From positions 1 to 64,000 of IMG/VR virus record IMGVR_UViG_3300043015_002666: a stretch of DNA of 64,000 bases; one strand, written 5' to 3'. Numbering within the stretch: position 1 is the stretch's first letter; each line of letters starts with the position of its first letter. A program made the position numbers and the translations under genes. The notes under the pieces were generated by a model. It saw only the letters and a list, made by a program, of their open reading frames with translations, was not told the DNA's origin and searched no databases. Positions 2,410 through 51,029 of this stretch are shown here, in pieces. Origin of the DNA: a virus.

Positions 2410-2426
2410 AAGTTTTTATTAGGAAT
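2410..2426 (-). promoter_or_regulatory. copy of the dispersed operator-like motif (ATTCCTAATAAAAACTT)
   Basis: Exact octamer TTAGGAAT at 2419-2426, in the intergenic region 2343-2536. Confidence 0.5.
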
Positions 2427-2536
2427 GAGGGGTGTATGAGGGAATAGCCAAACGAGAAAACCGCGCTTCCCGTGCGCGTGTTCCCTCTTGGCATTAAGTA
2501 AGGGCTTACTTAGAAGGGTAGTTACTAACTGTCTAA

Positions 2537-3391
2537 TTAATTTATAATATCGTCGCCTTTGGGGCGTATTTTCTCTTCGTTCTGACTGCGCTCTTGCTTT
2601 CTCATTTCCCTAATCTTTTCCGCTTCGGCCTCATCATAGAGTAAGCCGTTTAGACCTAATGAGTTAGGAATAGGTACCATGTCGCTGTACACGGAAGACT
2701 TTTCCTTTTTGACGGTCTTAACCGAGAAATCTTGCAATGAAGAGTCCCTGTCTTTTATCGCTATCAAACCGCCAACATTAACGCGCATCTTTTCCATGGC
2801 CTCTGGACCACCTTTAACAGAGAACAAGGCAATCACATCATCATGGCCTTTGGTGCGTATTCGATAAACCTTGTCTGGCTGCTTAGCAAACTGATCACGT
2901 TCCTGCATAAGAGTCTTGATAAGCTCTATTCGCTTTTCCCTACTCTCTTTACGGCGTAGCTTGTTTATCTCGCGTTCGTTACGACGAATGGCTCTTTCGT
3001 ATCGAGCAACAAGATCTAGACCTGTTTTCTTTTGACTGGCTACGGCGGTATTTATCGTAACTTTTAGCTTGGTAACATTCCTAAGAACAACCGGTTTTCT
3101 AAAGGACTGAGAAGACTCAGTAAAATACATTGGAGCCGCTTCTACCAGTTCCTCATTTGCTTTTATTTGCCTATCTATTTTGTCTAATAACTTATTTGCT
3201 GTATCACCTTCGTATACAACAGAAACGATCCTTGAGTCAGCGTAATCGGAATCCATGACACCGCTAACTTTTCCCTCAAATAAAGCGTACCGTTTCATTT
3301 CTTCATAAACATCACGGTCAGCAGCTTCCTTGTTTGCCAATAAATTGCTAACGCGCTCGGCATCAACTACTTTGTGATTGTTATCTTTCAT
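2537..3391 (-). CDS. hypothetical protein, 284 aa (speculative C1-type repressor candidate)
   Basis: Long ORF in an AT-rich stretch with operator-like motifs on both sides. No recognisable HTH. The functional idea rests on size and context only. Confidence 0.7.
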   Translation of the reverse strand: MKDNNHKVVDAERVSNLLANKEAADRDVYEEMKRYALFEGKVSGVMDSDYADSRIVSVVYEGDTANKLLDKIDRQIKANEELVEAAPMYFTESSQSFRKPVVLRNVTKLKVTINTAVASQKKTGLDLVARYERAIRRNEREINKLRRKESREKRIELIKTLMQERDQFAKQPDKVYRIRTKGHDDVIALFSVKGGPEAMEKMRVNVGGLIAIKDRDSSLQDFSVKTVKKEKSSVYSDMVPIPNSLGLNGLLYDEAEAEKIREMRKQERSQNEEKIRPKGDDIIN

Positions 3392-3581
3392 TTTTAACCC
3401 AATTCCTTAAAAGTCTCGACCGGGGTGCATAAGCCCTGCCTACAACAAACTTATAATTTATTAATATTTTATAGTTGTTACATGGAGTTAATGCGAGTAT
3501 AGCAAAGATAATTCCTAAATATATAGCGCCATAATGCCACAAATCAAAAATAATACTTTTTAAAACAAAAAAGCTCACCAA
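3381..3581 (-). CDS. possible small membrane protein
   Basis: 66-aa hydrophobic ORF in very AT-rich DNA, overlapping the next gene's start by 11 nt. Could be spurious. Confidence 0.3.
   Translation of the reverse strand: MVSFFVLKSIIFDLWHYGAIYLGIIFAILALTPCNNYKILINYKFVVGRAYAPRSRLLRNWVKNER
3511..3526 (+). promoter_or_regulatory. copy of the dispersed operator-like motif (ATTCCTAAATATATAG)
   Basis: Exact octamer ATTCCTAA at 3511-3518, upstream of the 284-aa gene. Confidence 0.4.
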
Positions 3582-3626
3582 ATGGCAAGCTTTTCTAAAA
3601 AATACTAATAATAAATAAATACTTTA

Positions 3627-3848
3627 CTAATTCAAAAAGTAATTAGTCAGAAGTTTGTTAATTTTAGTTTCGTCATAAACACAAGACTCAAACAACTCTG
3701 GCTTATGTGTCACCAGATAATTGATACATTCAAAAGTCATGGATTGGATCACTTCCGCGCCACGCTCAAACACATTAAATTTCTCTTCCAAGCCGTCCAA
3801 GAATTCCTCCGGGAATACTTTCAGCAGTTGCTCGTTCATGTCGTTCAT
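3627..3848 (-). CDS. hypothetical protein
   Basis: 73-aa acidic ORF, first gene of a leftward unit. Confidence 0.55.
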   Translation of the reverse strand: MNDMNEQLLKVFPEEFLDGLEEKFNVFERGAEVIQSMTFECINYLVTHKPELFESCVYDETKINKLLTNYFLN

Positions 3849-4114
3849 TTTTATCGTTCTGCCGTAAATTAACCGTTGTTAGCGGTATGCATGTTTATAT
3901 AGTTTCGCACTCTTGTAAATATGGTGTCTTATGATTGCATAGCTAAAGAGGTTTTACCGGGAGGAAGCAAAAGCCCTAAAAATAGTGATAATACTTGCCT
4001 GTATATACATACAGGGGTTTATTCGAACCACGTCACTTTGTGACAAGGTAACTCGTGAAATTATCCGCTTGTTTCTAGGTGTTATACCAGCTACACTTCG
4101 AATCTCATGGTTTA

Positions 4115-4140
4115 GTTTCAGTTCTATGGAGAACTGAAAC
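4115..4140. repeat. perfect 26-bp palindrome, candidate recombinase core site
   Basis: GTTTCAGTTCT-ATGG-AGAACTGAAAC. It can be read as 11-4-11 or 10-6-10. It lies about 480 bp upstream of the tyrosine recombinase gene inside a 770-bp noncoding region. Confidence 0.5.
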
Positions 4141-4618
4141 AAGACTCACCCCACATTTTTAGGGGGCAATCGAAACAAATAGGCTGTAACTCCAATAAAA
4201 ACAGCCACTTAACAGAATGACAGTCAGAACACCCCTACAAAGCCCAATAAAGGGACATTTGGACCTGCATAACTATGCGAGGGACAAAATAAGGACTTTT
4301 TGTGAAGTTTTGGCCCTGTTATTGACTTTATTATTATCACTGTCATCTATATGTAAGATTTGTGTCAGTTGAGATACCGGTGCAGAATAATTTTTACTGT
4401 ATTTGATTAAATGTGACTTTGATCACACGTTGAGCGGTTAAGTTAAAAGTTATACGCTTCAACACCTTATGTTCTCAAATATGAGCCATAACACTTAGCG
4501 GACTATGGCGACAGTTTTATATCATATCTCAGCAACTTATTGCATTGCATGCGTAAGACACGAAATTAACTCGAGCTAACACACTACACACCAAAAAGCA
4601 AAACACGGAGCAATCAAC

Positions 4619-5239
4619 ATGGCAGCATACCCGGCACGAACCAAAGAAGAGCTGGTGGAAATTCTGGAAAGAGTGAGCGACTACAGCCCACTGGTAAAAT
4701 TGTTCATTGAAATGGAAGCGCGCACCGGTTTGCGTTACAGCGACCTAAGCAAGCTAACGTTCAAAGAAATCATGATTAACGGCGTTCCTCGTGAAAGCTT
4801 CCCGGTTATCCAGTCGAAAGCCTTCCATGCTCGCATGAGCGGCAAAGCCAACATAGACGAAGCGACGGCCAAAGCAAAAAGCCGAATTGTGGTCCACGTT
4901 AACGACGAACTGGCCGAACTGATCCGCCAACTACACATCATTAACGGCCATAACAAACTGGTGTTCCAGTCAAACCACCACCACGCCAAAGAAGGGACCG
5001 CCATTAGTAGCCAATACATCAACCGGATACTAAAAAAGGTCGCCGGGGATATGAAATTACCCTTCCAACTCTCCACTCACTCAATGCGAAAATCTTACGC
5101 CAAACTGCTCATTGAGAACGGCGCAGGACTTAATACCATTCGTGACCTGCTAGGGCATTCTGACTCTAAAATCACTGATATGTACCTTAAAACCTTCGAA
5201 AGTGAGCTAAAAGAGCACGCAACCAGCATTAGCTTTTAA
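4619..5239 (+). CDS. tyrosine recombinase, catalytic-domain-only (FimB/FimE-sized)
   Basis: 206 aa with the R (ARTGLRYSDL), H-x-x-R (HSMRKSYA), H (LLGHSD) and Y (TDMYL) signature. No N-terminal core-binding domain. Confidence 0.85.
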   Translation: MAAYPARTKEELVEILERVSDYSPLVKLFIEMEARTGLRYSDLSKLTFKEIMINGVPRESFPVIQSKAFHARMSGKANIDEATAKAKSRIVVHVNDELAELIRQLHIINGHNKLVFQSNHHHAKEGTAISSQYINRILKKVAGDMKLPFQLSTHSMRKSYAKLLIENGAGLNTIRDLLGHSDSKITDMYLKTFESELKEHATSISF

Positions 5240-5294
5240 GCCACCAGCATTGAGGCGGACTATTCCGCCTCTCTCATTCGTTGGCACTCACGTC

Positions 5295-6884
5295 CTACAT
5301 GAGTTCTTCAAAATCCACATCATCAGCAATCCAGTCACCACGCCCTAAATCATCTTGATAGTCGTCGTATTCGTCATACTCAGAATCGGCCTCACGTATC
5401 CAGTCCTCAATCTGTGAACGTTCCTCTACCATATCATCAGTAAGCAATTCATCAGCCGGGACAAAGCCCACAAGCTGCGTAAAACAGTATGTATCCCATT
5501 GGTCGGGCGACTTAATGTTAAGCTTCTCGCGCATTACCTTCTTAGGCATGATCACCCAAGCGCCACGCTCATTAAGCCCACAAGGCACCTTACTGCCTTG
5601 CTCTGCGGTTTCACTTGAATTGTCGGTTGCCATACGGCCTTGGAGAATCGCATCACGCGCCATCACGTTGGCATACGCACGGCGGTTTAAGAATCGCTTC
5701 TTAAGCTGATCAGAGAACATCGGCAAGCCCCAATTAATGCGCTCTACACGACGCCTATGCTTCTCTATCAATAGCGTGGCGGTATCATGGCCCACACCGT
5801 CACTATCCACCGCTATGGTAATGTTTGGATAGAGATCTTCACTACACTCCGCGTTAATCACATCAGCAAAGCGCACCGGGGTAATGTTGGAGTCCATCAC
5901 TAACAGTTTATGATTCACCACCAGCCGGTTAGGCACCTCACCCCACACCTTATTGATATTGATGATCGACTTATCTCGCCCGTTACCCACGTCACACGTT
6001 GCCATCCAGCCCCATCCCTTGGGTAACTGAATGCTACGTTTAGCGGCACGGTCCATATCAGCACGGCCTAGCAGCATCCCGGCAATCGTTGAAGGGAATT
6101 CCCCACGAACCTTGATCAAATACTCTGGCGCTTCACGGCCACCGTATTCAATCAGCTTGGTGCGTATAAACTTGGTATCAACAATCGGACTCTCTTCAGA
6201 GTTTAAGCGGATAGATACCCATTCTTTTTTCTCGGCTAACTTATGGTGCGTATCGTAGAAGTAGCCACTTGGGCGCGTTGGCTGGCTCAATAGCAGCATG
6301 CGGTTATCATGCTGGGTAAAGGCACCGGTCATCACACCAAACGCCTTATCGCTCACACCGGACGCCTCATCTACCACAACGAGGAGGTGCGCTGCGTGCT
6401 CACCGGCTAGGGATTCCTCTTGCCCTAATCGACAGCTCTTAGCGCCGACAGACCATGCCTGTTTGCTCTCATTGGCATAAAACATGGTATCGGTCATCGT
6501 GAAGTACTGCTCTAACCATGGGTACGAGCGGCAAATCGCATTCCAGTGCTTTCTTAGGTACTTCCACACACCGATCTTAACCTGATTGGCGTTGTTGGCC
6601 GTCAGAACGACACGCGCGTCATAGTAGGTTGTGACAAAGGCAATGATCATCCCGGCGGTTGAGTCTGATTTGCCGGTACCGTGACCCGACGTTACCGATA
6701 CCCTAGCCCCTTCCTTGTTCGTCGCGGCAATCACTTCTCGCTGCTGGTTTGTTGGTGGAAAGTCCAACCCTTCAACAAAGAACCGTTGCCAGTCATGGCG
6801 ATATCGCCTCACATAATCCTGATATCGCGGATCGGAAAGTATCGACGTGCGACGACGTGCGCCACTGCCTTTACGCCTAGCCAT
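5295..6884 (-). CDS. terminase large subunit (PacB-like)
   Basis: 529 aa with Walker A SGHGTGKS, Walker B LLVVVDEASG and a C-terminal nuclease-like AVDSDGVGHD. TAATG overlap with the upstream gene. Confidence 0.85.
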   Translation of the reverse strand: MARRKGSGARRRTSILSDPRYQDYVRRYRHDWQRFFVEGLDFPPTNQQREVIAATNKEGARVSVTSGHGTGKSDSTAGMIIAFVTTYYDARVVLTANNANQVKIGVWKYLRKHWNAICRSYPWLEQYFTMTDTMFYANESKQAWSVGAKSCRLGQEESLAGEHAAHLLVVVDEASGVSDKAFGVMTGAFTQHDNRMLLLSQPTRPSGYFYDTHHKLAEKKEWVSIRLNSEESPIVDTKFIRTKLIEYGGREAPEYLIKVRGEFPSTIAGMLLGRADMDRAAKRSIQLPKGWGWMATCDVGNGRDKSIININKVWGEVPNRLVVNHKLLVMDSNITPVRFADVINAECSEDLYPNITIAVDSDGVGHDTATLLIEKHRRRVERINWGLPMFSDQLKKRFLNRRAYANVMARDAILQGRMATDNSSETAEQGSKVPCGLNERGAWVIMPKKVMREKLNIKSPDQWDTYCFTQLVGFVPADELLTDDMVEERSQIEDWIREADSEYDEYDDYQDDLGRGDWIADDVDFEELM

Positions 6885-8314: not shown

Positions 8315-8323
8315 AGTGATAAA

Positions 8324-8513
8324 TGCGCACAAATTTAAAAGTTATTAGGAATTATAAACACGCAAAAGTGCGCACCACAACTACATAAATTGCGCATTAA
8401 CCGCTTCGAACTGCGCAAAACAAAAATAAAATGTGCGCACAATGAGTATTTTGCGTAAAAAATTGCGCATTTCTGCATATGCACCAGAGAAAAACATGTA
8501 ACGCTTTTGCGCA
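8324..8513. repeat. cluster of seven TGCGCA hexamers (candidate pac or regulatory site)
   Basis: TGCGCA starts at 8324, 8369, 8391, 8412, 8434, 8464 and 8508. TGCGTA is at 8452 and TGCATATGCA at 8473. The central copies are about 21-22 bp apart. Confidence 0.6.
8337..8352 (-). promoter_or_regulatory. copy of the dispersed operator-like motif (ATTCCTAATAACTTTT)
   Basis: TTAGGAAT at 8345-8352 in the divergent intergenic region. Confidence 0.5.
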
Positions 8514-8522
8514 CAATTAATG

Positions 8523-8538
8523 TAAAGTTGTTAGGAAT
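8523..8538 (-). promoter_or_regulatory. copy of the dispersed operator-like motif (ATTCCTAACAACTTTA)
   Basis: TTAGGAAT at 8531-8538, lying between the 9-bp inverted repeat CATGTAACG (8495-8503) and CGTTACATG (8545-8553). Confidence 0.5.
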
Positions 8539-8582
8539 TATCCCCGTTACATGAAACGCTCAGCATTTGAGGATAACCCCCT

Positions 8583-10439: not shown

Positions 10440-10447
10440 GGACCAGC

Positions 10448-11019: not shown

Positions 11020-11026
11020 ATACAAG

Positions 11027-11068: not shown

Positions 11069-11184
11069 TCTATGTAACCCTCGTCACTGCTTGGGTTTAT
11101 CAAGTCCAAGCTCACTCAGTTAATCACGCTGAATGCCTTATATGAGGTTGTTTCTAATCTACTTGAGGTATTGTGTGTTGTCCA

Positions 11185-12922: not shown

Positions 12923-12958
12923 TTTTCCTAATAAATCTTTGTATTGTTAGTATTTCTA

Positions 12959-18867: not shown

Positions 18868-19010
18868 TAAAGAGACTTGACTTCTCCCCTCCCTCACGGA
18901 AGAGGATTCTTAGTTCGACACGCTTTCACTAGGTTGAGTGGAAACACTCAACCCCCGATCCAGTCGCTCCCTGAGATAACCCTGCCAGCCCGACAGTTTT
19001 TATGTTCATT
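18868..19010 (-). ncRNA. putative TnpB guide-RNA (omega RNA) scaffold
   Basis: In TnpB elements this RNA overlaps the tnpB 3' end and the right end. Seen here: GGTTGAGTG-TTTC-CACTCAACC, then TCCTCTTCC-GTGA-GGGAGGGGA with a GNRA loop. Boundaries are not determined. Confidence 0.4.
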
Positions 19011-20065
19011 GCTGCGTTAATATCACGATCATGGTGCGTATTGCATTCTGGACAAGTCCAGTTTCGGATATTAAGCGGCATTGATTCGTGTACGAACCCA
19101 CAACAGCTACAACGCTTTGAGCTAGGGAAGAAGCGATCTATCTCAACGATAGTTCGTCTAGCCCATTCTGCTTTGTATTTGAGTTGGCGAACGAACTCTC
19201 CCCAACTCGCATCAGCGATGTGTTTTGCTAGTTTTGGATTGCGGAGCATGTTCTTCACTTGTAGCGATTCAACACAAACAACTTGGTTTTCGTTTATTAG
19301 TTTGCGAGACAACTTGTGTAAGTTGTCTAATCGACTATCAGCAATTTTCGCGTGTAGACGGGCTACTTTCTGGCGCACCTTAGCGCGATTATTACTGCCT
19401 TTCTTTTTCTTGGCGAGTTGGCGCTGTAGGTATGCCAGTTTGTTTTGGTAGCGTTTGAAGTGGCGAGGATTATCGACTTTCTCGCCGCTATCTGTGATGA
19501 ACAGGTTATTTAAACCTAAATCAATACCAACCGTTTTAGCGGTTACAGGCATTGGTTTAGACTCAAAACGACACAACATAGACACAAAGTAACGCCCTGC
19601 TTTGTCTTTGCTTACAGTTACTGTGGTTGGTGTGCTAGGTAATTCACGCGACCATCTTATGTTCAAAGGATCTTTTGATTTGGCTATGAACAACTGGCCG
19701 TCACGGTATTTGAATGCAGAACTGGTAAGCGTGATGCTTTGCTTTGCATGTTTCTTTTTGAATTGTGGGTATCGAGCGCGATTGCCCCAAAAGTTTTTAA
19801 ATGCAGTTTGTTGATGGCGTAACGCTTGTTGTAGGGGAACGCTAGATACTTCCTTTAACCATTCGGTTTCTGGGTTCTTTTTCAGTTCAGTTAGCTTTGC
19901 ACTGGCTTGGTTGTAGCTGATTGATTCACCATCTTTGTAGTAAGCATCAGTGCGCCAACGCAAGATTGCATTGTAAACAAAACGAGTACAGCCGAACGTC
20001 TTGGTTAGAAGTTCGGCTTGCTCATTGGTCGGGTAAAACCGTTGTTTAATTGCGATCTCTTTCAT
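18929..20065 (-). CDS. tnpB: TnpB (OrfB_IS605) RNA-guided endonuclease
   Basis: 378 aa with the N-terminal RFYPTNEQ...FGCTRFVYN, a zinc finger CSCCG...CPECN, and the RuvC motif HDRDINAAMNI. Confidence 0.9.
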   Translation of the reverse strand: MKEIAIKQRFYPTNEQAELLTKTFGCTRFVYNAILRWRTDAYYKDGESISYNQASAKLTELKKNPETEWLKEVSSVPLQQALRHQQTAFKNFWGNRARYPQFKKKHAKQSITLTSSAFKYRDGQLFIAKSKDPLNIRWSRELPSTPTTVTVSKDKAGRYFVSMLCRFESKPMPVTAKTVGIDLGLNNLFITDSGEKVDNPRHFKRYQNKLAYLQRQLAKKKKGSNNRAKVRQKVARLHAKIADSRLDNLHKLSRKLINENQVVCVESLQVKNMLRNPKLAKHIADASWGEFVRQLKYKAEWARRTIVEIDRFFPSSKRCSCCGFVHESMPLNIRNWTCPECNTHHDRDINAAMNIKTVGLAGLSQGATGSGVECFHST

Positions 20066-20165
20066 GACTTACAAAATACATACTGTTTATGAGGACGGGG
20101 GTTTCGGCCAATTTGACAAAAACGTTACATGCAACCAATCATACACGCTCTTCTAGCCCTGATCA

Positions 20166-20181
20166 ATTCCTAATAGATTTT
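20166..20181 (+). promoter_or_regulatory. copy of the dispersed operator-like motif (ATTCCTAATAGATTTT)
   Basis: ATTCCTAA at 20166-20173. CGTTACATG lies 35 bp upstream at 20123-20131. Confidence 0.5.
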
Positions 20182-22548: not shown

Positions 22549-22564
22549 ATTCCTAATAATTTTA
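22549..22564 (+). promoter_or_regulatory. copy of the dispersed operator-like motif (ATTCCTAATAATTTTA)
   Basis: ATTCCTAA at 22549-22556. A degenerate inverted copy (TTTAGGAAC) is at 22590-22598 and CGTTACATA at 22638-22646. Confidence 0.5.
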
Positions 22565-22644
22565 TGAGATTGTACTCAAAACAAGGTTGTTTAGGAACTA
22601 TGATCAAGGTTCATTCAGGGATTTATTTAAATTTAATCGTTACA

Positions 22645-22673
22645 TAAAAAAAGGCCGACCCAATGGCCGACCT
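22645..22673 (-). terminator. rho-independent terminator
   Basis: Minus strand AGGTCGGCC-ATTG-GGTCGGCCT, a 9-bp stem with two G-U pairs, followed by T7. Confidence 0.55.
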
Positions 22674-26605: not shown

Positions 26606-27145
26606 TTAAATACAGTTCAGTAACGCGGGATACTGCAATCCGATTGGAGCGAACGGTATGTCATCGTCAAAATCCATCGGCGGCTCGTTATATTGCTGTT
26701 GAGGCTGCTGTTGTGGCTGTTGGTGCTGGCCCTGTTGGCGCTGTTGACCTTGGCCTTGGCCTTGTTGGCTCGGTTGCTGGCCATTGCCTTGAGCACGACC
26801 ACCCAACATCTGCATAACGCCATTAAAGCCCGACACTACCACTTCAGTGGAATAGCGATCCTGACCGTTTTGGTCTTTCCATTTGCGTGTCTTAAGTTGA
26901 CCTTCGATGTACACCTGCGAACCTTTATGCAGGTACTCACCGGCAATCTCTGCCAACTTGCCGTTAACTACGACTTGGTGCCATTCGGTTTTCTCGCGCT
27001 GTTCGCCGGTGGCTTTGTCGCGCCATGACTCGCTAGTTGCCACCGTGAACTTGGCCCACGCTTGATTTTTGTGGTAGCGAACTTCAGGCGCGGAACCTAA
27101 GTTCCCCACCAGAATCACTTTGTTCACCGAACCTCTGGATGCCAT
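26606..27145 (-). CDS. ssb: single-stranded DNA-binding protein
   Basis: OB-fold N-terminus ([11 protein letters not shown]...EWHQVVV), a Gln/Gly-rich linker, and the acidic tip DFDDDIPF. Confidence 0.95.
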
Positions 27146-27447
27146 TACTGGACCTCTTCAATTAATGTGTGCTTGCTTGGAACGTCGTCACCGAAAATCA
27201 GCCATAAAAATGGACGTCCCGTTACTTCAGCAATGGCAAGCAAAGTAAAAATACTCGGCGCGCTTGCGCCATCTTCAATCTTGCTTAACGTCCCACGACT
27301 GACACCGATCTGAGCCGACAATTCCATGATCCGCATTTCCGCCATGATCCGGGCCTTTTTCACTCTTTGGCCCAACTCAAAACGCTGTTCAGTCTTTGAT
27401 TTTTGCGTCACTGTAGAACTCCTGTACGGCTTCAGCGTGCCTTTCAT
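27145..27447 (-). CDS. XRE-family HTH regulator
   Basis: [25 protein letters not shown]. The start is uncertain because the ORF overlaps the upstream gene by 59 nt. Confidence 0.7.
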
Positions 27448-27819: not shown

Positions 27820-27867
27820 ATTCCTAATAAAAAGTGATATGAGCATAATAAATTATTTGTTAGGAAT
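27820..27867. promoter_or_regulatory. inverted pair of operator-like motifs in a divergent control region
   Basis: ATTCCTAATAAAAAGT (27820-35) faces ATTCCTAACAAATAAT on the other strand (27852-67). The left copy also covers the AGGA Shine-Dalgarno of the 27811 gene. Confidence 0.5.
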
Positions 27868-27959: not shown

Positions 27960-28199
27960 ATGACTACACAAGTTAATGAGAGCAAAGCGAAACATGACGC
28001 GATTCAACGTGAAATTGCAGCATTTGAGCAAGGAAAAGCCACAATGATTGATTTGATGGTCCACAACACGGTAGCACTAGGGACCACCAGCATTGAGCGA
28101 GTAGCGGCTAAATTACGCATTCCTAAAGATAAGTTAATTAACTCTTTAACGGCTGGACTATTTAGGATTTCTGGTGATAACATCGCTAACAAGGTATAA
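27960..28199 (+). CDS. small putative DNA-binding protein
   Basis: 79 aa with an HTH-like TSIERVAAKLRIPKDKLINSL. Divergent from the early operon. Confidence 0.6.
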   Translation: MTTQVNESKAKHDAIQREIAAFEQGKATMIDLMVHNTVALGTTSIERVAAKLRIPKDKLINSLTAGLFRISGDNIANKV

Positions 28200-29731: not shown

Positions 29732-29747
29732 ATTCCTAACAAAAAAC
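29732..29747 (+). promoter_or_regulatory. copy of the dispersed operator-like motif (ATTCCTAACAAAAAAC)
   Basis: ATTCCTAA at 29732-29739. Confidence 0.5.
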
Positions 29748-29797: not shown

Positions 29798-29813
29798 ATT
29801 CCTAATAACTTTT
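29798..29813 (+). promoter_or_regulatory. copy of the dispersed operator-like motif (ATTCCTAATAACTTTT)
   Basis: ATTCCTAA at 29798-29805, abutting the DnaA box. Confidence 0.5.
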
Positions 29814-29833
29814 GTGGATAAGTCTGTTAAAAC

Positions 29834-30181
29834 ATGAATACGACCGAGAACCTAATCAAACAAATCGAAGAGCAAACAAGCGCGCTACAGCGGGACATGA
29901 AGCGCAAACAGATGCCAAAAAAACATGCGCCAAAGCTCGAAAAATCGCTGTTAATAACTTTGTCTGGCTGCGCCTTTAACGTGCATAAACAGACAGATAA
30001 CCAGCTTGTTTTGATTGCCAATGAGAAAGTGAACTTTGAGAAGGGCGTAAACGCTGTTCGAGTGATTAGCTACATCGAAGGCACTTATGACGAAGTGACC
30101 ATTTCTGACTGGAACTGGCGTCCAGTTCGATGGAAGAAAGACAAGTTATTCCTAAAACCGATTGCGCCGACACTAATGTAA
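29834..30181 (+). CDS. hypothetical protein
   Basis: 115-aa ORF with a weak Shine-Dalgarno. Confidence 0.55.
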   Translation: MNTTENLIKQIEEQTSALQRDMKRKQMPKKHAPKLEKSLLITLSGCAFNVHKQTDNQLVLIANEKVNFEKGVNAVRVISYIEGTYDEVTISDWNWRPVRWKKDKLFLKPIAPTLM

Positions 30182-32891: not shown

Positions 32892-33045
32892 CGTGCGACC
32901 TCAGTTAAAGGAACGCGCTTTTCATTGAGCGGGGAGCTTGAAAAGTGTGGTTATAAAATAACTTAGTATCAACTCAAATCCCACACGGCCATTTTTTAAT
33001 AAGCCGTTACATGCAGTTTTGCTCACAAATTAACGTTGCTCAGCA

Positions 33046-33079
33046 AAAAGTTGTTAGGAATAATGCTCGTGTCTATAAA
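33046..33079 (+). promoter_or_regulatory. sigma70-like promoter overlapped by an operator-like motif
   Basis: -35 TTGTTA (33051-56), a 17-nt spacer, -10 TATAAA (33074-79). The motif ATTCCTAACAACTTTT on the minus strand spans 33046-33061. Confidence 0.5.
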
Positions 33080-40406: not shown

Positions 40407-40666
40407 GATATCCGTAATGATATCTAAATTGATATCACAATAAATATCTAAAGTGATACCTTTCTAGGTATCCTTGTATATATCAATCAAGATATCTTTC
40501 TTGATACAAGTAACGGTATCCACTATGATACAACGATTGGTATCATTTTGAGTTTAAGTAACGATATCCATCTAGATATCACTAGGGATATCGAAGCTCA
40601 CACCAATGCAAACAACTACACACTAATATTGATATCAATCAAGATATCCCATTCGATATCTTTGAT
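40407..40666. repeat. upstream centromere-like array: GATATC-type hexamers on an exact 12-bp register
   Basis: Hexamers start at 40407+12n for n=0-11, as GATATC, GATACC, GGTATC, GATACA or TATATC. Further copies are at 40563, 40575 and 40587, and at 40631, 40643 and 40655. A DnaA box is at 40380-40388. Confidence 0.8.
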
Positions 40667-40687: not shown

Positions 40688-41473
40688 ATGAGAAAAATCA
40701 TGATTACCGCTAGAAAGGGCGGCGTTTGTAAAACAACTATCACTGTAAACTTGGCTTACACTCTGGCAAGGCTAGGGAAGAAAGTTTTAATTATCGACCT
40801 TGACGCACAGGCCGACTCAACCAAGTTTTATCGCGCTGGTCGTTCGGACTTTTACATTGGCGACGTACTACTTGAGCGCAAATTTGACATAAGAAAAGCA
40901 ATCTACAAGGCGCAGGTAAAAGGCGAAGAGTTGGAGAATTTACACATCATTCCGGGCCGACCTAATGACGAAATGACCGTGCTTGACAGACAAGTTTTCT
41001 CACTAAGTCGAAGCGAAGAGAGGCTAACTTACCAGCTTAACAAGCTCGATACTGACGAATACGACTTCCTACTTATCGACACATCACCAACGGCCACTAC
41101 GCTATCCATGAACGCAACCATGGCGTGTGACGAATTCCTTTTCCCTACCGATTTTACCGGCCTGTCTCTGGATGGCATCGACTCTATTATTGAGCACATT
41201 CAAGATCTCAAGCTGATTGAGGAAGATGAAATCAACTTCCTTGTGGTGCCGTCATCTGTAGATAAGAAGTCGGTTAAAACGGTTCGCTATGGTGAGGAAT
41301 ACATCGCGGCCAAATATCCAGACAACCGAACTAAAACCGTGATCTGGCAAAAGCCAGCCATTTTTAACGAGGCGGTATTGCGATTCCTGCCAATCGCAGC
41401 GATCAGCAATTCCGACATTTCATCTATTCACTACAAAGAACTAGCTCAAGAGGTACTTGATAATGTCCTTTAA
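40688..41473 (+). CDS. parA: ParA-family partition ATPase
   Basis: 261 aa with the deviant Walker A KGGVCKTT, then DLDAQ and IDTSP. Confidence 0.9.
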   Translation: MRKIMITARKGGVCKTTITVNLAYTLARLGKKVLIIDLDAQADSTKFYRAGRSDFYIGDVLLERKFDIRKAIYKAQVKGEELENLHIIPGRPNDEMTVLDRQVFSLSRSEERLTYQLNKLDTDEYDFLLIDTSPTATTLSMNATMACDEFLFPTDFTGLSLDGIDSIIEHIQDLKLIEEDEINFLVVPSSVDKKSVKTVRYGEEYIAAKYPDNRTKTVIWQKPAIFNEAVLRFLPIAAISNSDISSIHYKELAQEVLDNVL

Positions 41474-41873
41474 TCAAAAATTGTACGACGAACTATGCGA
41501 AAAGCGAGCTAGCGGAGTAGGGCTTAGGCCAGCGGAAAAAGCGGAACTCAGCAAGCTAGAAAAAGAGCTACGTCGCAGCAATAAGCCAGCTCAGGAAGAT
41601 AAACAGCCAGAAACAAACATTCTAGGCGCAAAAAATAACAGCGATAATGAGAAATCACCTAAGCTAATTCGCTTTGTTCAAGTGGAAAGACGCGCACTAA
41701 AAACGCGTCGTGAATCATTGTTAGCAGACTCGCCAGACGACGTTAAAGAGGCGTTAGGTTCAGTAAAAGCAGCCAGTGAAGATTTGCTGGTTAGAGCTGC
41801 CGTGCTAAGCCTATCAAGGCTTTCCGACAAAAAGCTCATTGCACTAATGAAAGAAGCTCAAATGAATTCGTGA
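41463..41873 (+). CDS. putative centromere-binding partition protein (small ParB/ParG-like)
   Basis: 136 aa, overlapping the parA stop by 11 nt, with an AGAGG Shine-Dalgarno. Called from position in a type-Ib-like par cassette. Confidence 0.55.
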   Translation: MSFNQKLYDELCEKRASGVGLRPAEKAELSKLEKELRRSNKPAQEDKQPETNILGAKNNSDNEKSPKLIRFVQVERRALKTRRESLLADSPDDVKEALGSVKAASEDLLVRAAVLSLSRLSDKKLIALMKEAQMNS

Positions 41874-42009
41874 TATCTGTGTTGATATCATTTCAGATAA
41901 CAAAAGAGATACCCAAAGCGGTATCTCTTTTTATATCTTATGTGATATTTAATTGGGTATCATTGATGATATATATACAGATATCAATTTAGATATCATT
42001 CAAGATATC
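41872..42009. repeat. downstream centromere-like array: 12 hexamers on a 12-bp register
   Basis: Hexamers start at 41872+12n for n=0-11 (GATATC and variants). The last copy overlaps the stop of the convergent 612-aa gene. Confidence 0.8.
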
Positions 42010-44742: not shown

Positions 44743-45934
44743 TACCTCTTGCCTTGTCGTGTAAGTGAGCTATTACGCCCACAATAAATTCAAAGTGTTC
44801 TGGATCGTTCACGGCCAATCGCCCTCTTGATTCGTTATCAATCAGAGATTCAACCCCCATCGTGATCACTTCTGTAGCCGTGGCACCGTCGATATCAAAC
44901 GGATCGGCATGGTTGTAAAACTTGGTGGCGTAGGGCGTGAATGCGCCGTCATCAATCGTGTATTCACGTTCTGAGTAGTTAATCCCACGCTTAGATCCCC
45001 ACTTATCCTGATAGATATCACGCAGGGAACGGATACCATTAGATTTAGCTAGGCGGTCCTTTAGAAAGCGTTTCGACATTTCGAGCACTTCCGGGTGATC
45101 GTACTCAAGCGAATGGGCCAGCTCATGCCATAGCACACGCTTGGTAAAACTCTCGCCCACACTGATTGAACGCTCACTATTGCGGTAATCTTGGCGCGCT
45201 TTGCGCACCGTAAAGTTGATAGGTTCAGCAGTGAACGCCACCAGCGAATACAGCTCACCGGCTGCGGTAATGAGCTTTTGTTTAGCTCTGCCACCGCCCC
45301 CGGTAAAGTCGCCTTTGCGCTGGCGAGACAAGCGATTGTTTGCCAGCTTATCAAAGCCTGATTGCATCGCTTTCCTTTGGCCGTCCTTAAGACTGACCGG
45401 AGAGTTAAACATTAACTCATTCACTACACCGGATAGCTGGTGGCCCACTTCCTTGTATTTCTCCCGGTGAATATCCCGGACCTCTTCATAAATGCCAAAA
45501 GTGTGGTTATCGTTTGGTTGCGCCTTGTCAGCCCCCACCAGTCGATACACATCGTAAGCTTGCGCATGCTGAGCTATAGCATCGAGCGTGCGTGCTTTCT
45601 TTGGCTTACTCCATCTTTGGGCCTCAATGAGATCCGTGATTCTAGCATTGCCTTTAATGGTTTCGCTTACTTCACTCTTAAGGTTTCGGTCTATCTCAAC
45701 ACCAAAAGAGGCCAGCACATCCCGGCCCTTTTGAGTGACAGCTTTCAGCTCGGTTACTTCGCTATCGGATGGATTCACGCCTTTTCGCCCTGTCAGCTCT
45801 GACAAAATATCAAGACGTTCCTTGGTTAAAGCCATGCGATCAAGAAGAGGCACGTTGGCCCCTTCTCGTTTCAGGTAAACCAATATCTCCACGGCGCGAC
45901 CGGCTTTTTTAACGCGTTCGCTAAGTGGGACCAT
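44714..45934 (-). CDS. zincin-like metallopeptidase domain protein
   Basis: 406 aa with HExxH in LWHELAHSLEY. Confidence 0.65.
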   Translation of the reverse strand: MVPLSERVKKAGRAVEILVYLKREGANVPLLDRMALTKERLDILSELTGRKGVNPSDSEVTELKAVTQKGRDVLASFGVEIDRNLKSEVSETIKGNARITDLIEAQRWSKPKKARTLDAIAQHAQAYDVYRLVGADKAQPNDNHTFGIYEEVRDIHREKYKEVGHQLSGVVNELMFNSPVSLKDGQRKAMQSGFDKLANNRLSRQRKGDFTGGGGRAKQKLITAAGELYSLVAFTAEPINFTVRKARQDYRNSERSISVGESFTKRVLWHELAHSLEYDHPEVLEMSKRFLKDRLAKSNGIRSLRDIYQDKWGSKRGINYSEREYTIDDGAFTPYATKFYNHADPFDIDGATATEVITMGVESLIDNESRGRLAVNDPEHFEFIVGVIAHLHDKARGSDDSTKANQ

Positions 45935-48900
45935 TACACTGTCACCTCCGATTGAAGTTCAACCAAGCGAGCAAACGCGGCTTCTAGTAAGTCGTTATGC
46001 TCGTCTAAGGTACCGGCTGATTCAAAGCTGGCATAAGCAGCCTCAATGTCGGCTTGGTACTGCTCAAGAATCTCAATCGTTGCGTCACCGGAGTAATCAC
46101 GGATAGTGCGTAGCGCATCAGTGTGCACCTGCTCTTCTGAGTTAGTTTCCACTGGTTCAGGCTCCTGTACCGGCTCTGGTTGCGGCTCTGGCTGTTGTTT
46201 TGGTTTATCGTCCGTGTAAGTCTCAATAAACGGTTTCTGACCGCCATTGTGCTCTATACGGATACGCTGAGCGATCTTCATCGCATCATTAATGCTGTAG
46301 CCGTTAACTAGCAACGTGTCGTAGATATCATCTTGACCTTGGTAGTTCATTGAGCCGTCATCATTGAACCACTTAACCGTTGATAAGCCTTTTAGCATGG
46401 CTTTGAACTTCTCGGTTTCAGCGTCCAGCACGTTTTCTACCGGCGGCTCGTTAATACCTTCAATGTAAACACCCGCGTTTACAATCTCTTCCTTACCAAC
46501 CGAGAAAACTTCGTCAGTGGTACCCGCCTCTCTTAACGTGACTCTGGATGCGCCAATATTCACAATCTTGTATTGACCATCGCCCAACGCGATAATGTCA
46601 CCAACCTTGTTGACCTTGTTCGTATTTGTTTCTTCCTCTGGATCGTACCACTGTGCTTCGTGAAGCAATTTAACAAAGTCAGCTTTGCTAATTTCGTTCT
46701 TAAGCATCGCTTCAAAGTTAACGCCTACATGCTTATTCTCGCCTTGGGCCATACCAGCGTTAGAAATCGTTCTGATATCGTAGTCAGACAAATCCAAGTA
46801 GTGAGCAAACAGTTTTTCGCCCTTAGATTTACTGATTGGGTAGCCTTGCTCTACCGCGCTATCAATCATTTCTTTGTACAGGTTGTAAACGCCGTACACG
46901 TAGCCGTTGTACTTAATCTTGTCTTTTGTCTTAGGAACGATATCTTTGAAATCTTTAGTTCCATAAACAAAATTCTCGTCAATGTACTCATCCAGTTTTT
47001 TACTCGTTGCGCCCTTCATGGCTTCGAACTTATCAGGCTCATCGTTAACGCTCATGTAGGCTTTACGGGCCGCATCACTCAATTTCTCTTTTGCATCGTC
47101 GTCCATAAGGTCAAACGCTCGGAGGAGTTCTTGAGGATTTTTCTGACCAACATAGGACCACGACTTACCAAAAAGACCCGGAGTGATAATGTCATATTCG
47201 CGCTGGTTAAAGTCGTACACTTCACCGTTCACTTCAACCACCGGCGCGTTAACGTCGTAACCTTCATTGGCATCTAACCAATACCCAATATCGCTCGCCC
47301 ATTTCTTTTTATGTCTTGCACTGGTGGACGCATTCAGAAGGTCGGCTCTGATTGTATCTGGCACATTGTGAATAAGCGTTTCTGACAGCATTAATTTGCC
47401 ATCTTTAAGTGCTAACGCACCAACCTCAACCGATTTAACTAGCGCACGGATTGCATCAGCAAAACTTGTGCTGTTGTCTTTATGTTGTTTGGTTTCTTCG
47501 CCGCTGTCGTCTAGGCCGGTAATGGCCGGTAAACCTGCCGCCACACGTAGATCGTTAAAACCTTCTTCTTCATCCGTGCCAGCAAAGTGATTAATGGCAC
47601 CCGGATCTTGCAACTCTCCAACGTAAGCCTCTAAAAGAGCGGCCTTAACCTGATCCCAGCCTGATAAACTTTCAGCTCCGGTAATAGGTGAACCTTCGTC
47701 ATAAGTAAGATTAAAAGAGCCATCTTCTTTGTAATGAATATCGTAAGAGCCATAATTACTGCTTGAATCAATCTTGAATAAAGGCGATTCAACGTTAACG
47801 GATAAATACATTTCTTTATCTAGGTTTAGATCTGCTTGATCTAAGCCATGCTTATCAATATTCCAACCTTCAGGCATACGCTTGCCTTTCACTAACGCTC
47901 TTAGCTCTGCAAGGGCTTTCTCGTTCTTAACGCGGACGTCAGAGACAAGAACGTCAATATAACCGGCCTCCTCTTCAATCATGGTTGGTGTCACCAGTGA
48001 TAGGGACGCATTCCAAACCTTAAACGTATCCGGGATGCTTTTACGACGTTCAAACTCATCTTGCTTGCGCAATAGCTTGCTAAACGCTTGCTTAAAGCTA
48101 GATGCAGCTACTTGGAATTTAATGTCTTCCATCTGCTTGGTTGTGATACGATCCGTATTGTTCTCGTCCATCCAGTCATACAGGAATTGACGCACGATAG
48201 TTTCCGCCGAATCTTCGTCGGCCAGTGAAAAATCTTCACCTGACTCTGATAGCGGTCTAAGCTCAAAGTCGCTCACTTGTTTAGGCGTTAACGCTTCTGC
48301 ATACGCGATTGCACCATGGCGAATTGCACGGCCAGCGTTAGGGAACTTAACTTCCGCCTCTTCCGCGTTGAGCACCTTAACAACTTCCGCATCACTTGGC
48401 GTATTCCCCATACCAGCCGGGCGCAATTGCAGGCCGTACCAATGCAGACCGCTTGTGGTTTCTTCTTCCTGTTCGACTACGCCACCAGCTTCGGGTACGT
48501 CGTTGACTTCACCAAGTTTCCAGATTGAATGGCGCTTAGTGAATGCTGGCTTAGTGGCAACTTTGTTGTACTCCGCAATCATGGTTAGCACGTTGTTAAC
48601 TTGCGGCTGGTGGCCTTGACGTTGCAAGGTCTTCAGCTTACCGGCAAGATTGCTCACAAACAGGGAACGGTCAAAACCGGCAAGGTTTGGATCATTGCTA
48701 TCAATGCCAGAGATATTCATAAGAGAAGAAAGCAAGCGAACGTTACCATCTTTGACAACGATATCTGCCGCTGCTTTAAACGCTGGCGAACCGAGCAATT
48801 TACTGTCGGTCGTTTCTGGCTTGTTGTTATCCGGGTTTTCACCGGTACCCGGCACAAACTTATTGGCTAACTGCTTGCGTAGCTCTTCCTGAATGTCGTT

Positions 48901-49641
48901 CTGGTTGGCGATCTGCTTATTGAGCGTATCAATGCGCTTTTGCTTCTTAGCGTTAGCCTCTTCGATGCTATCAAGCTGATCCGACTGAGTATTAATGTTC
49001 GCTTCAATCTCTTCTAGCTGCGCTTGTGTCGCTTCAAGCTCTTGCTTTTGTTGTGCGTTTTGCTCTTGTCTGGCTGCGAATTTCTCCGAGTTCTTTTCAA
49101 CTAAGTTACTCAGCGCAAGGGCCATTTGGGAACGTGAAATATCACGGCCACCTGAAGGCGCGACCGCGTGCGTTACGTCACGACTGTTCACCAAGAATCG
49201 GAACGCGATCAGCGTATCGTCAGCATTGATTTTTAATGGATCATTATCCGGGGCATGAAATACCAGTGACACGCTCTGACCGTCAGAAAGATTCAGCTTT
49301 GCCACTTGAACCGCAACCGAACCGCTTTTACGTGGCTTGCTGATCTCACGCCCTGTTACTTCAATGCCAACCGGCTTAAGGTGTTTGTTTAGCGTATTCG
49401 AAAAACCGATAACGCGAGTCTCTAAACGGGCCGCTTTGGCTTTGATGGCTTCAAGCATCATTACCGGCATAGCGTCAAACTGAGACAAGTACGCTTGCTC
49501 AATGTCGGCCACTTCGACCGACTCAAGCATTAGTTGGTGTTCGTCCGCTTGAAAGATGGCACTTACGGCCTCTTCACTTAACGACTTGGCAAAGTGGTCT
49601 ACGCGGTCCACCACTCGAATTTGATTGGTCTGCAAAAACAT
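45934..49641 (-). CDS. large (1235 aa) putative virion/injected protein
   Basis: Long ORF with a coiled-coil segment. Its N-terminal roughly 200 aa is paralogous to the upstream 205-aa protein. Confidence 0.8.
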   Translation of the reverse strand: MFLQTNQIRVVDRVDHFAKSLSEEAVSAIFQADEHQLMLESVEVADIEQAYLSQFDAMPVMMLEAIKAKAARLETRVIGFSNTLNKHLKPVGIEVTGREISKPRKSGSVAVQVAKLNLSDGQSVSLVFHAPDNDPLKINADDTLIAFRFLVNSRDVTHAVAPSGGRDISRSQMALALSNLVEKNSEKFAARQEQNAQQKQELEATQAQLEEIEANINTQSDQLDSIEEANAKKQKRIDTLNKQIANQNDIQEELRKQLANKFVPGTGENPDNNKPETTDSKLLGSPAFKAAADIVVKDGNVRLLSSLMNISGIDSNDPNLAGFDRSLFVSNLAGKLKTLQRQGHQPQVNNVLTMIAEYNKVATKPAFTKRHSIWKLGEVNDVPEAGGVVEQEEETTSGLHWYGLQLRPAGMGNTPSDAEVVKVLNAEEAEVKFPNAGRAIRHGAIAYAEALTPKQVSDFELRPLSESGEDFSLADEDSAETIVRQFLYDWMDENNTDRITTKQMEDIKFQVAASSFKQAFSKLLRKQDEFERRKSIPDTFKVWNASLSLVTPTMIEEEAGYIDVLVSDVRVKNEKALAELRALVKGKRMPEGWNIDKHGLDQADLNLDKEMYLSVNVESPLFKIDSSSNYGSYDIHYKEDGSFNLTYDEGSPITGAESLSGWDQVKAALLEAYVGELQDPGAINHFAGTDEEEGFNDLRVAAGLPAITGLDDSGEETKQHKDNSTSFADAIRALVKSVEVGALALKDGKLMLSETLIHNVPDTIRADLLNASTSARHKKKWASDIGYWLDANEGYDVNAPVVEVNGEVYDFNQREYDIITPGLFGKSWSYVGQKNPQELLRAFDLMDDDAKEKLSDAARKAYMSVNDEPDKFEAMKGATSKKLDEYIDENFVYGTKDFKDIVPKTKDKIKYNGYVYGVYNLYKEMIDSAVEQGYPISKSKGEKLFAHYLDLSDYDIRTISNAGMAQGENKHVGVNFEAMLKNEISKADFVKLLHEAQWYDPEEETNTNKVNKVGDIIALGDGQYKIVNIGASRVTLREAGTTDEVFSVGKEEIVNAGVYIEGINEPPVENVLDAETEKFKAMLKGLSTVKWFNDDGSMNYQGQDDIYDTLLVNGYSINDAMKIAQRIRIEHNGGQKPFIETYTDDKPKQQPEPQPEPVQEPEPVETNSEEQVHTDALRTIRDYSGDATIEILEQYQADIEAAYASFESAGTLDEHNDLLEAAFARLVELQSEVTV

Positions 49642-50258
49642 TACTGCGCTTCCTCAATTTGTTTTTCTAGATCTTTGGTTTCGGCTTTCTCCGCTGCGAG
49701 CTCTGCCGTTAATCGCTCAATCTCAGAGTCCATAGAGGCGCTTTGAGTGTTTGCAGCTTCCAGTGAGGACGTGATAGCACTCTGATTCTCTTGCAATGCG
49801 GACAGACTTGCTTTGGCTTCGTCTAATCGCTTGCTTACACTGCGCGTTAAGGGCTTGCTGGTTGAAGTGTCTTTTACGGCCTTGTTAGCTTTGCGCGCTT
49901 GCTGCTTATCAAATTTGGCTTGGTTGCGGTTAAGCATGTTTGTCATGTCTTTAGCCAGTTCACGTTCGCTGGTGGCGTCTGGCAATGGCTGCTTAGTCGA
50001 ATTAAGCTGTAGCTGGTAAATGTCGCCTTCAGAGCCGATAAATAGCGTCATGGTCTGGCCGTTCTCAAAAAAGAACTTGGCTTGCTTCACGCGTTGCGAA
50101 TCTTTGCGCTTAGGCTTGTTGTCGGCCTGAATGTCGGTCACTGGCTCACCGGCACGTTTTAACGCGTCCACCAGCGACTTTAAGCCACGTTCGGTCACGT
50201 TATCGTAATCAACGACAACGTAACCGTGATTTTGTCTCGATGCGAATAGTCTACTCAA
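49641..50258 (-). CDS. hypothetical protein, paralogous to the N-terminus of the 1235-aa protein
   Basis: Compare KPKRKDSQRVKQAKFFFENGQTMTLF...KFDKQQ with KPRKSGSVAVQVAKLNLSDGQSVSLVF...KFAARQ. Confidence 0.75.
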   Translation of the reverse strand: MSRLFASRQNHGYVVVDYDNVTERGLKSLVDALKRAGEPVTDIQADNKPKRKDSQRVKQAKFFFENGQTMTLFIGSEGDIYQLQLNSTKQPLPDATSERELAKDMTNMLNRNQAKFDKQQARKANKAVKDTSTSKPLTRSVSKRLDEAKASLSALQENQSAITSSLEAANTQSASMDSEIERLTAELAAEKAETKDLEKQIEEAQ

Positions 50259-50670
50259 TGTAAAAATCCTCTTGGTATTTCGTGACGGTCGGGAATATCT
50301 TGTAAAGCGGATTCAGGCGAGAGCATGAGCGTTCGATCTTGATGTGTAGCTGCCACGCTTGGCCGTGAACCGGCTCCCCGGCCTCTTGCTGTAGCTGCTC
50401 AATATCGAAGGTAAGAAATTCGGAGTTCAGACCATTGACGGAAAAGTCCAAAGAACGGTGATGCGTGATCACGGACGTAGGCCGCTTTTTATTTCTCAAG
50501 GAGTACGTGATTTGGCTACTTGAAAACGCGCGCTTGGCCCGGAAATCAAGTGCAAATCGCAAAGTTTGCTGGTCGTGCATTTCGCTGACGCGCTCGATTT
50601 TCACCGTGTTGCGTTTAAGTAAAAATCGATCAGCGAAGGCTACCCCAATCACTGCCAATTCATAAATCAT
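50251..50670 (-). CDS. hypothetical protein (LydB position)
   Basis: 139-aa ORF with an ATGA overlap to the upstream membrane protein. Confidence 0.6.
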   Translation of the reverse strand: MIYELAVIGVAFADRFLLKRNTVKIERVSEMHDQQTLRFALDFRAKRAFSSSQITYSLRNKKRPTSVITHHRSLDFSVNGLNSEFLTFDIEQLQQEAGEPVHGQAWQLHIKIERSCSRLNPLYKIFPTVTKYQEDFYIE

Positions 50671-50981
50671 TTAGTCTTTCCTCCGAAGTTGAGCGCGCCC
50701 GAAAACCGCTCAATGAAATGTTTTTTCAGTGCAAGTAGTGTGTCTGAACCGTTATTGGACAGGATTAACACCGCCGCACATGTATAGCCTCGATCTATCT
50801 CTTGAGTTTCTCCGATATAGGCCACAATCAACCCCACGATAGCGGCCAAAACCAGCTCCGCTAAGAGGTCAAAGTAACCGTTATATCGTCCTGCGCGTTT
50901 GCCTTGCAGAAAGGAGCCGAAGCCGCTGAAAAACGAGAGAGCTAACACCAACGCTGTAAACCCGATATCAATAACTAACAC
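50667..50981 (-). CDS. small membrane protein, possible holin
   Basis: 104 aa with about 3 hydrophobic helices, first gene of the operon. The position is analogous to P1 lydA at the head of the darA operon. Confidence 0.5.
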   Translation of the reverse strand: MLVIDIGFTALVLALSFFSGFGSFLQGKRAGRYNGYFDLLAELVLAAIVGLIVAYIGETQEIDRGYTCAAVLILSNNGSDTLLALKKHFIERFSGALNFGGKTK

Positions 50982-51013
50982 AGGTCAAACGCTCCCTTTT
51001 AATGGTTATGTAA

Positions 51014-51029
51014 GAATATTATTAGGAAT
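51014..51029 (-). promoter_or_regulatory. copy of the dispersed operator-like motif (ATTCCTAATAATATTC)
   Basis: TTAGGAAT at 51022-51029, upstream of the holin-like operon. Confidence 0.5.

Follow-up and report, generated by a model that had tools for sequence, protein, structure and literature searches.

Dispersed asymmetric sites as a putative operator set of a C1-family repressor in a Vibrio P1-like phage-plasmid

The finding that a short asymmetric motif recurs in front of many operons of one viral genome has raised the question of which regulator reads it. The motif, (A)ATTCCTAAYAA(n)TTT, has been studied in 64,000 nucleotides (nt) of the IMG/VR virus record IMGVR_UViG_3300043015_002666 (positions 1 to 64,000, hereafter the window), for which a preliminary description had compared it with the operators of the phage P1 repressor C1. 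We consider it likely that the motif represents the operator set of the element's own C1-family repressor, a protein of 284 amino acids (aa) encoded on the minus strand (Table 1), and we have hardly any doubt that the cis element as such is real and functional. As judged by its genes for PacB, Prt, Pro, a DarB-like protein of 2219 aa, a Ulx-like protein and a holin, the window is part of a Vibrio P1-like phage-plasmid and falls into the group of marine P1-like plasmid prophages that pVv01 and p0908 represent (Hammerl et al., 2014, PMC4132613), of which pVv01 is inducible and yields myovirus particles (PMC4132613). The product of the large-terminase gene (5295-6884) shares 49% identity with P1 PacB (E = 8.5e-160), and megablast of the window against phage records has given no match. 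The network adds a further case to a type of control already known, and no new mechanism comes to light.

In the window, the octamer ATTCCTAA/TTAGGAAT has 18 exact copies, compared with 1.79 ± 1.28 (maximum 5) in dinucleotide-preserving shuffles. All 16 positions given in the preliminary description are correct, but two copies had been overlooked, 2664(-) and 3077(+), both within the open reading frame (ORF) of the 284-aa protein; its 12 intergenic copies stand, and the coding copies number six instead of four. On a gene map curated from the ORF list and from synteny with an annotated relative, intergenic DNA, which is AT-rich, amounts to 5,269 bp or 8.3% of the window, and the location of 12 of the 18 octamers in this fraction, for which a zero-order expectation gives 0.3, corresponds to a binomial p of 1.2e-9, so that the suspected intergenic enrichment is borne out. 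For the extended word ATTCCTAAYA the bias is sharper still, with 11 of 12 copies intergenic (p = 1.4e-11), and a preference of the motif for non-coding DNA has also been seen in three relatives. A k-mer scan carried out without prior hypothesis has returned ATTCCTAA as the most over-represented 8-mer after Chi-derived words. Six octamers lack the YAA extension (2664, 3077, 3511, 23930, 28119 and 30148), and among them that at 3511 alone is non-coding. Weaker intergenic copies with one or two mismatches have been obtained from a position-weight scan and a one-mismatch search at 2377-2387(+), 12924(+) and 22588-22598(-); the near-copy reported previously at 12924 is indeed present, as TTTCCTAATAA. 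The window thereby holds 13-15 intergenic sites, spread over nine separate regulatory regions. Their information content is limited to (A)ATTCCTAAYAA, followed by a weak A/T position and TTT, and the three 16-mers quoted earlier for the extended match (8337-8352, 29798-29813 and 33046-33061) have been read correctly. The site is asymmetric and non-palindromic, it is found in both orientations, the flanks of its copies are not homologous to one another, and no flanking column around it holds a -10 or -35 element at fixed distance.

The motif is kept in related elements and changes together with the C1-like protein. A megablast match of the window, a 77%-identical stretch comprising prt, pro and darB, lies in the 90.9-kb Vibrio alginolyticus plasmid NZ_CP082309, whose C1-like protein is 69% identical to that of the window; in this plasmid the octamer is present in 21 copies, and in 8 of 8 aligned orthologous intergenic regions, with 50-81% overall identity, the motif stands out as a conserved island. 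Fragments encoding a 58%- or 65%-identical C1-like protein carry the motif as well, including both intragenic copies. Taken as one type (T-type, C1-like proteins 58-100% identical to that of the window), the window, CP082309 and the loci L009 and L010 have 18, 21, 5 and 8 copies of ATTCCTAA, respectively. Elements with a C1-like protein of 29-34% identity show ATTCCGAACA or AATACGAACC at the motif's places instead. The complete plasmids CP082321 and CP045358 (34% and 30% identity) form a second, G-type group with 25 and 27 copies of ATTCCGAA(CA), where about 2 would be expected, and four shorter G-type loci of 13-21 kb each (32-34%) contain 8-12 copies of ATTCCGAA. A third type is represented by the first 50 kb of CP050480 (29%), in which (A)ATACGAACC is dispersed, its word ATACGAAC reaching 20 copies against 1.8 expected. 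The three words are mutually exclusive, each being at background level in elements of the other types, and the variants occupy orthologous places: between prt and darB, upstream of pacA, upstream of the holin gene, in the early divergent switch, at the 115-aa gene next to the DnaA box, and ahead of the c1-like gene by about 120 nt. Between the two G-type repressors, identity amounts to 51%. A survey of C1-like loci has yielded one locus in genome contigs and six in viral contigs, all of them G-type, and the covariation therefore rests on 11 elements or fragments of three types, throughout which the pattern holds.

The 284-aa protein had been named as a candidate repressor, and several comparisons now place it in the C1 family. 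It matches phrog_1678 with E = 6.8e-9 (P1 C1, of 283 aa, with E = 2.6e-140), P1 C1 can be aligned collinearly over 194 columns with a profile built from nine Vibrio homologues (hhalign E = 1.4e-4, probability 53%), and Pfam PF27008 (Phage_P7_repressor_C1) is recorded on proteins 65-79% identical to it, while the protein itself has no match to Pfam-A (PF27008 included) or NCBIfam in local libraries. A direct BLASTP alignment to P1 C1 is collinear, with 23% identity over 180 residues and E = 0.035, and tblastn of the 284-aa protein against 50,697 phage records has given no match; the C1 homology is therefore visible only with profiles. From this evidence, the protein is a remote homologue of the P1/P7 C1 repressor. 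The neighbourhood of its gene is P1-like too, with a 73-aa ORF of the size of Coi, a Cre-like tyrosine recombinase and pacA- and pacB-like genes, and Ref, a further P1 protein, is also encoded by relatives. No PHROG, Pfam or NCBIfam match has been obtained for the 73-aa ORF, and tblastn with the P1 proteins has found no homologue of Coi or Lpa, Lxc and Ant not having been searched for.

Putative sites surround and enter the c1-like gene itself, one lying upstream at 3511, one downstream at 2416-2426 and two within the coding sequence; as the c1-like genes of G-type relatives are likewise preceded by a site, at 118-124 nt, the position of the 3511 site, 120 nt ahead of the start codon, would suggest autoregulation. 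At the intragenic copy on the plus strand, all five T-type c1-like genes use the codon AGG for the Arg of an invariant R-N pair, whereby TTAGGAAT (3077-3084) is preserved. AGG is a rare codon in gamma-proteobacteria. If it is as rare here, its retention suggests selection on the DNA and not on the protein alone, and the site may be an intragenic operator; the assignment of the octamer at 2664-2671 as an operator is uncertain.

In P1, C1 binds 22 dispersed asymmetric 17-bp operators (PMC8546580), and the number of sites here, 13-15 intergenic ones per 64-kb window and 21-27 octamers per full relative, is of the same kind. The repressors resemble each other in length (284 and 283 aa) and family (phrog_1678, PF27008), and both systems, the one here and the ImmC network of P1 and P7, have sites at the repressor's own gene, a site-bearing SSB operon, and a repressor gene that lies near an ORF the size of coi, a recombinase gene and pacA/pacB. 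In the P1 record, the annotated operators have the sequence ATTGCTCTAATAAATYT, and comparison with them has confirmed the CTAATAA-n-TTT core that had been proposed as common to both, the ungapped match being 10 of 15 positions. In contrast to P1, the 5' half of the site is ATTC instead of ATTGCT, the proteins share only some 20% of their residues, sites are also found ahead of terminase, holin, capsid and baseplate operons, convergent pairs are 47-49 bp apart in place of the overlapping 'bivalent' operators, and three operator dialects exist among the Vibrio relatives. The plasmids pVv01 and p0908 share with the window the Vibrio host, a plasmid size of ~80-95 kb and P1-like PacB, Cre, DarA/DarB, head, tail and lysis genes, but their description, on which this comparison is based in place of their sequences, lists neither a C1 homologue nor operators (PMC4132613). 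A search of the literature for the motif words and for immunity of Vibrio P1-like elements has found no prior description, and the regulatory network of these phage-plasmids appears not to have been reported before.

The arrangement of the sites follows two layouts. Three convergent pairs, in which the first bases of the two sites are 47-49 bp apart (2377/2426, 22549/22598 and 27820/27867), have their proximal arm oriented against the downstream gene and 9-28 nt from its start codon; the first pair brackets a sigma-70 promoter, TTGAAA-16-TATTAT, that matches the consensus at 10 of 12 positions, and the other two precede early operons, one with HU and Dam methylase, one with an XRE regulator and SSB. 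Single sites, found at packaging, lysis, structural and accessory operons, have the orientation of the downstream gene and lie 32-49 nt ahead of its start codon (38 nt for the pacA-like gene, 36 for the 115-aa gene, 43-48 for the holin gene, 34-40 for lysis and capsid operons in relatives), in many cases with a -10-like hexamer 0-4 nt ahead of the site. The P1 operator Ossb begins on the base after the -10 of P2ssb, and the single-site layout is thus consistent with a C1 operator. Overlap with a promoter is clear at 2411-2384 and plausible at c1, pacA and darB; the -35/-10 pair noticed previously near 33054 is TTGTTA-17-TATAAA and faces darB. Of the copies described earlier as sitting in front of operons, the one at 20166 lies beside a TnpB insertion. 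By analogy with P1 C1, the C1-like protein would probably read a single asymmetric site, presumably as a monomer, and, by covering or adjoining the -35, the -10 or the transcription start, would prevent expression of the operons while the element persists as a plasmid-prophage. Promoters of the early operons and of the operon downstream of c1 would then be bracketed by convergent pairs, packaging, lysis, structural and accessory operons would each be controlled from one sense-oriented site as at Ossb, and late, lysis and packaging operons would be covered by the repressor directly.

Table 1. Candidate repressor gene, putative operator sites and accompanying words in the window.
Feature	Position	Strand	Remarks
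Candidate repressor gene, 284-aa C1-family protein	2537-3391	-	Assigned by phrog_1678, hhalign and PF27008 on homologues
73-aa ORF	3627-3848	-	Directly upstream of c1-like gene; position and size of P1 coi (69 aa); 48% identical in CP082309
Putative site ATGCCTAATAA	2377-2387	+	Weak; downstream arm of convergent pair; overlaps -10 and start of leftward promoter; kept in CP082309
Putative site ATTCCTAATAA	2416-2426	-	Abuts -35 of TTGAAA-16-TATTAT (2411 to 2384), promoter of the 86-aa gene operon downstream of c1
Octamer in c1-like coding sequence	2664-2671	-	I-P-N codons of PIPNSLGL; kept in all T-type elements
ATTCCTAAGAA, antisense in c1-like coding sequence	3077-3087	+	Spans R-N codons; kept in all five T-type genes
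ATTCCTAAATA, putative autoregulatory operator	3511-3521	+	Upstream of c1-like start codon; overlaps -10-like hexamers of leftward promoter
Putative site	8342-8352	-	Upstream of pacA-like ATG (8314); upstream TATA and the motif's AT give TATAAT
Putative site	8528-8538	-	Divergent region between pacA-like gene and gene 8583(+); inverted boxes CATGTAACG and CGTTACATG on either side
One-mismatch intergenic site	12924-12934	+	
Putative site ATTCCTAATAG	20166-20176	+	Orthologous to CP082309 position 23746; TnpB insertion (18929-20065) now separates site from operon
Putative site	22549-22559	+	18 nt upstream of ATG 22531; proximal arm of convergent pair before HU/Dam-methylase early operon
Putative site GTTCCTAAACA	22588-22598	-	Distal arm of HU/Dam-methylase operon pair (49 bp, first base to first base)
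Putative site	27820-27830	+	Adjoins ATG 27811; proximal arm of convergent pair before early operon with XRE regulator and SSB
Putative site	27857-27867	-	Distal arm of XRE/SSB operon pair (47 bp)
Putative site	29732-29742	+	Between Rep-like gene and 115-aa gene
Putative site	29798-29808	+	Upstream of ATG 29834; followed by DnaA box TGTGGATAA
Putative site	33051-33061	-	Between prt and darB; complement gives -35 of the promoter facing darB
Putative site	51019-51029	-	48 nt upstream of holin operon start (GTG 50981); 23 nt downstream of AAGTAACG box
Perfect 11-mer in coding sequence	62626-62636	-	Translated as SIPNNK, within a variable segment of the 1027-aa protein; not conserved in relative
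A(A/T)GTAACG copies	2351-2358, 8496-8503, 8545-8552, 20123-20130, 22638-22645, 33005-33012, 40508, 40556, 51053-51060, 63850-63857		

Several observations weigh against the assignment of the motif to the 284-aa protein. Its homology to P1 C1 is remote, with 18-23% identity and the BLASTP E value and hhalign probability given above, and an AlphaFold2 model (7 sequences) has been too poor to be informative on the fold, with a predicted local distance difference test score (pLDDT) of 59 and no Foldseek match in BFVD at E < 0.3. The P1 consensus ATTGCTCTAATAAATTT has no match in the window at up to 3 mismatches, and the sites would therefore represent a distinct specificity within the C1 family and not a P1-immunity operator. 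A simple scan for consensus sigma-70 promoters has found partners at few sites only, so that overlap with a promoter is presumptive for most of them. From one motif type to another all backbone proteins differ, structural proteins having 45-60% identity, and the covariation thus supports a cognate protein without singling out C1. Finally, P1 controls its late, lysis and packaging operons through Lpa-dependent late promoters and not through C1 operators, whereas sites precede such operons here.

This last feature also speaks for the idea that the motif is a promoter-proximal or initially transcribed element, i.e., a phage-specific promoter class read by an activator, or a 5' leader (AUUCCUAAYAA...) bound by an RNA-binding factor, since the corresponding operons of P1 are activator-controlled. 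The common orientation of many sites with the downstream gene, at the narrow distance of 32-49 nt from the start codon, would fit it as well, and in CP045358 about 11 of 24 sites lie 1-7 nt after a TAnnnT hexamer, so that the motif would begin the transcript. Such an element is nevertheless unlikely, as no column outside the motif carries fixed-distance information and at least a third of the intergenic sites are opposite-oriented, 9-28 nt from start codons, or in convergent pairs. Moreover, one site directly adjoins a -35 on its upstream side, in another the opposite strand provides a -35, no phage sigma factor or Lpa homologue has been found, and the placement directly after a -10 is equally that of the C1 operator Ossb. 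The operator of another regulator has been weighed along the same lines, the candidates being the XRE-type helix-turn-helix protein (27145-27447), the small proteins flanking the 27820/27867 switch and the PadR-family protein of relatives. The XRE protein matches phage repressor families (DicA and RstR-like in NCBIfam), its gene lies directly behind a site pair, and between motif types it is as diverged (33-38% identity) as the C1-like protein; dimers of the XRE and PadR families, however, as a rule recognise sequences of dyad symmetry, whereas a single asymmetric 11-16-mer is present here and the members of pairs are 47-49 bp apart and not half-sites. C1 is the only known family with many dispersed asymmetric sites of the CTAATAA-TTT core, and its homologue is encoded here with sites around and inside its own gene, which makes another reader of the motif quite improbable. 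An origin of the motif as a by-product of ribosome-binding sites, of AT-rich composition or of a short dispersed repeat without regulatory role is barely credible. Its complement does contain AGGA, the 27820 copy lies 10 nt before an ATG, and intergenic DNA is rich in A and T, but 12 intergenic copies contrast with the 0.3 expected, most sites are sense-oriented and read UCCU instead of AGGA or lie 32-170 nt from the start codon, the flanks are not homologous from copy to copy, and the motif has been kept where its surroundings have diverged. The relatives' variants TTCGGAAT and GTTCGTAT occupy the same positions without AGGA (or UCCU), by which the Shine-Dalgarno origin raised as a caveat in the preliminary description is ruled out.

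Returning to the C1-like protein as the probable reader of the sites, the dialects ATTCCGAACA, AATACGAACC and ATTCCTAAYAA probably correspond to separate immunity specificities. We put forward more tentatively, as a proposal that could as easily fail as hold and perhaps more so, that at least three mutually exclusive dialects, each with its own C1-family repressor, constitute orthogonal pairs and heteroimmunity groups, and that, unlike in P1, the repressor itself also covers the start regions of late, lysis and packaging operons, whereby the lytic programme would be clamped at at least 20 points and not via one activator gene. In a more remote variant, the sense-oriented copies would additionally provide a common 5' leader in the RNA.

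Among the coding copies, that at 62629 had been described as coding, and this has proved right, the copy itself not being conserved in the relative; it is probably fortuitous or a lineage-specific internal site. Its reassignment as intergenic, by way of an over-long ORF call, has been rejected, as the N-terminus of the 1027-aa protein is conserved in the relative. The octamer-only copies at 28119-28126 and 30148-30155 (ATT CCT AAA, Ile-Pro-Lys, in the 79-aa and 115-aa genes) are conserved in CP082309 and could reflect coding constraint or weak internal sites. Just downstream of the 29798 site and adjoining the gene of the Rep-like 350-aa protein, a perfect DnaA box TGTGGATAA (complement of TTATCCACA) is located at ~29813-29821; it is conserved in all relatives including CP050480, and this stretch may serve as an origin of replication controlled by the repressor. 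At 20166, the gene between the site and the operon that follows the orthologous operator in CP082309 encodes TnpB (IS605 OrfB / Cas12f-like, minus strand), and no such insertion is present at the corresponding place in CP082309.

A second intergenic word, A(A/T)GTAACG, has been found in 16 copies, 10 of them intergenic (Table 1). At the holin and pacA-side promoters it precedes ATTCCTAA by 14-31 nt, and at the holin operon the spacing of 23-24 nt has been observed in 4 of 4 elements, as has the layout of site and AAGTAACG box, the site being 43 nt upstream of the holin ATG in three relatives. The word resembles the -22 box of P1 late promoters (AAGTTACTT or ATGTGACTT, with a -10), whereas ATTCCTAAYAA neither resembles that box nor keeps a fixed spacing to such a box, and Lpa, as stated, has no homologue here. 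In all relatives, a small protein annotated with the C-terminal domain of the RNA polymerase alpha subunit is encoded inside the head/late operon (L002 27051-27467, L005 19514-19945, L007 12743-13171) and could serve as a transcription factor for late genes. Upstream of the pacA-like gene, the DNA between the two ATTCCTAA sites has seven TGCGCA-containing repeats, (A/T)TGCGCA(C)AA, over 8324-8513, four of them spaced 21-22 bp; the array is partly conserved in CP082309 and may be a pac/terminase-binding array or an array for a regulator. An Rfam scan has found no family, C4 RNA included.

Other repeated words have been noticed in the window and its relatives. The Chi octamer GCTGGTGG occurs in 51 copies where ~4 are expected (~13-fold), 34 on the minus and 17 on the plus strand (e.g., 193, 609, 1123 ... 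63046), and is over-represented in all relatives as well (67-89 copies). P1 is also rich in Chi. The k-mer scan has further returned CATCGAGC(G) 17 times, ACGCGGAC 11 times and AACTACACAC 4 times. In the G-type plasmid NZ_CP082321 (L004+L005), the palindromic word TCGCATGCGA(AAAC) is present in 26 copies against 0.24 expected, and it is not prominent in the window. Tandem repeats of 27/54 nt (60044-60354, up to 8 copies with 65-75% matches) lie within the 1027-aa gene, whose product is probably a tape measure or fibre, and contain Chi-like CCACCAGC words. Repeats of 12 bp containing GATATC (40418-40458, 40480-40600 and 41979-42009), together with two AAGTAACG copies, flank the genes of a 261-aa and a 138-aa protein (40688-41873), which have no counterpart in CP082309; this region may contain the iterons or the centromere of a different plasmid replicon module.

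For the marine P1-like phage-plasmids, a common and uncharacterised group in Vibrio, the analysis provides a regulatory map that names a candidate repressor gene, 13-15 putative operators and the target operons. It also gives a view of how immunity based on dispersed operators evolves, as at least 20 sites would have to switch along with the repressor, a change that exchange of modules could hardly bring about. The three dialects lend themselves to studying the way in which an asymmetric site is read by the C1 fold, itself poorly understood, and they would be of use in predicting superinfection immunity among Vibrio plasmids and possibly as orthogonal repressor parts.

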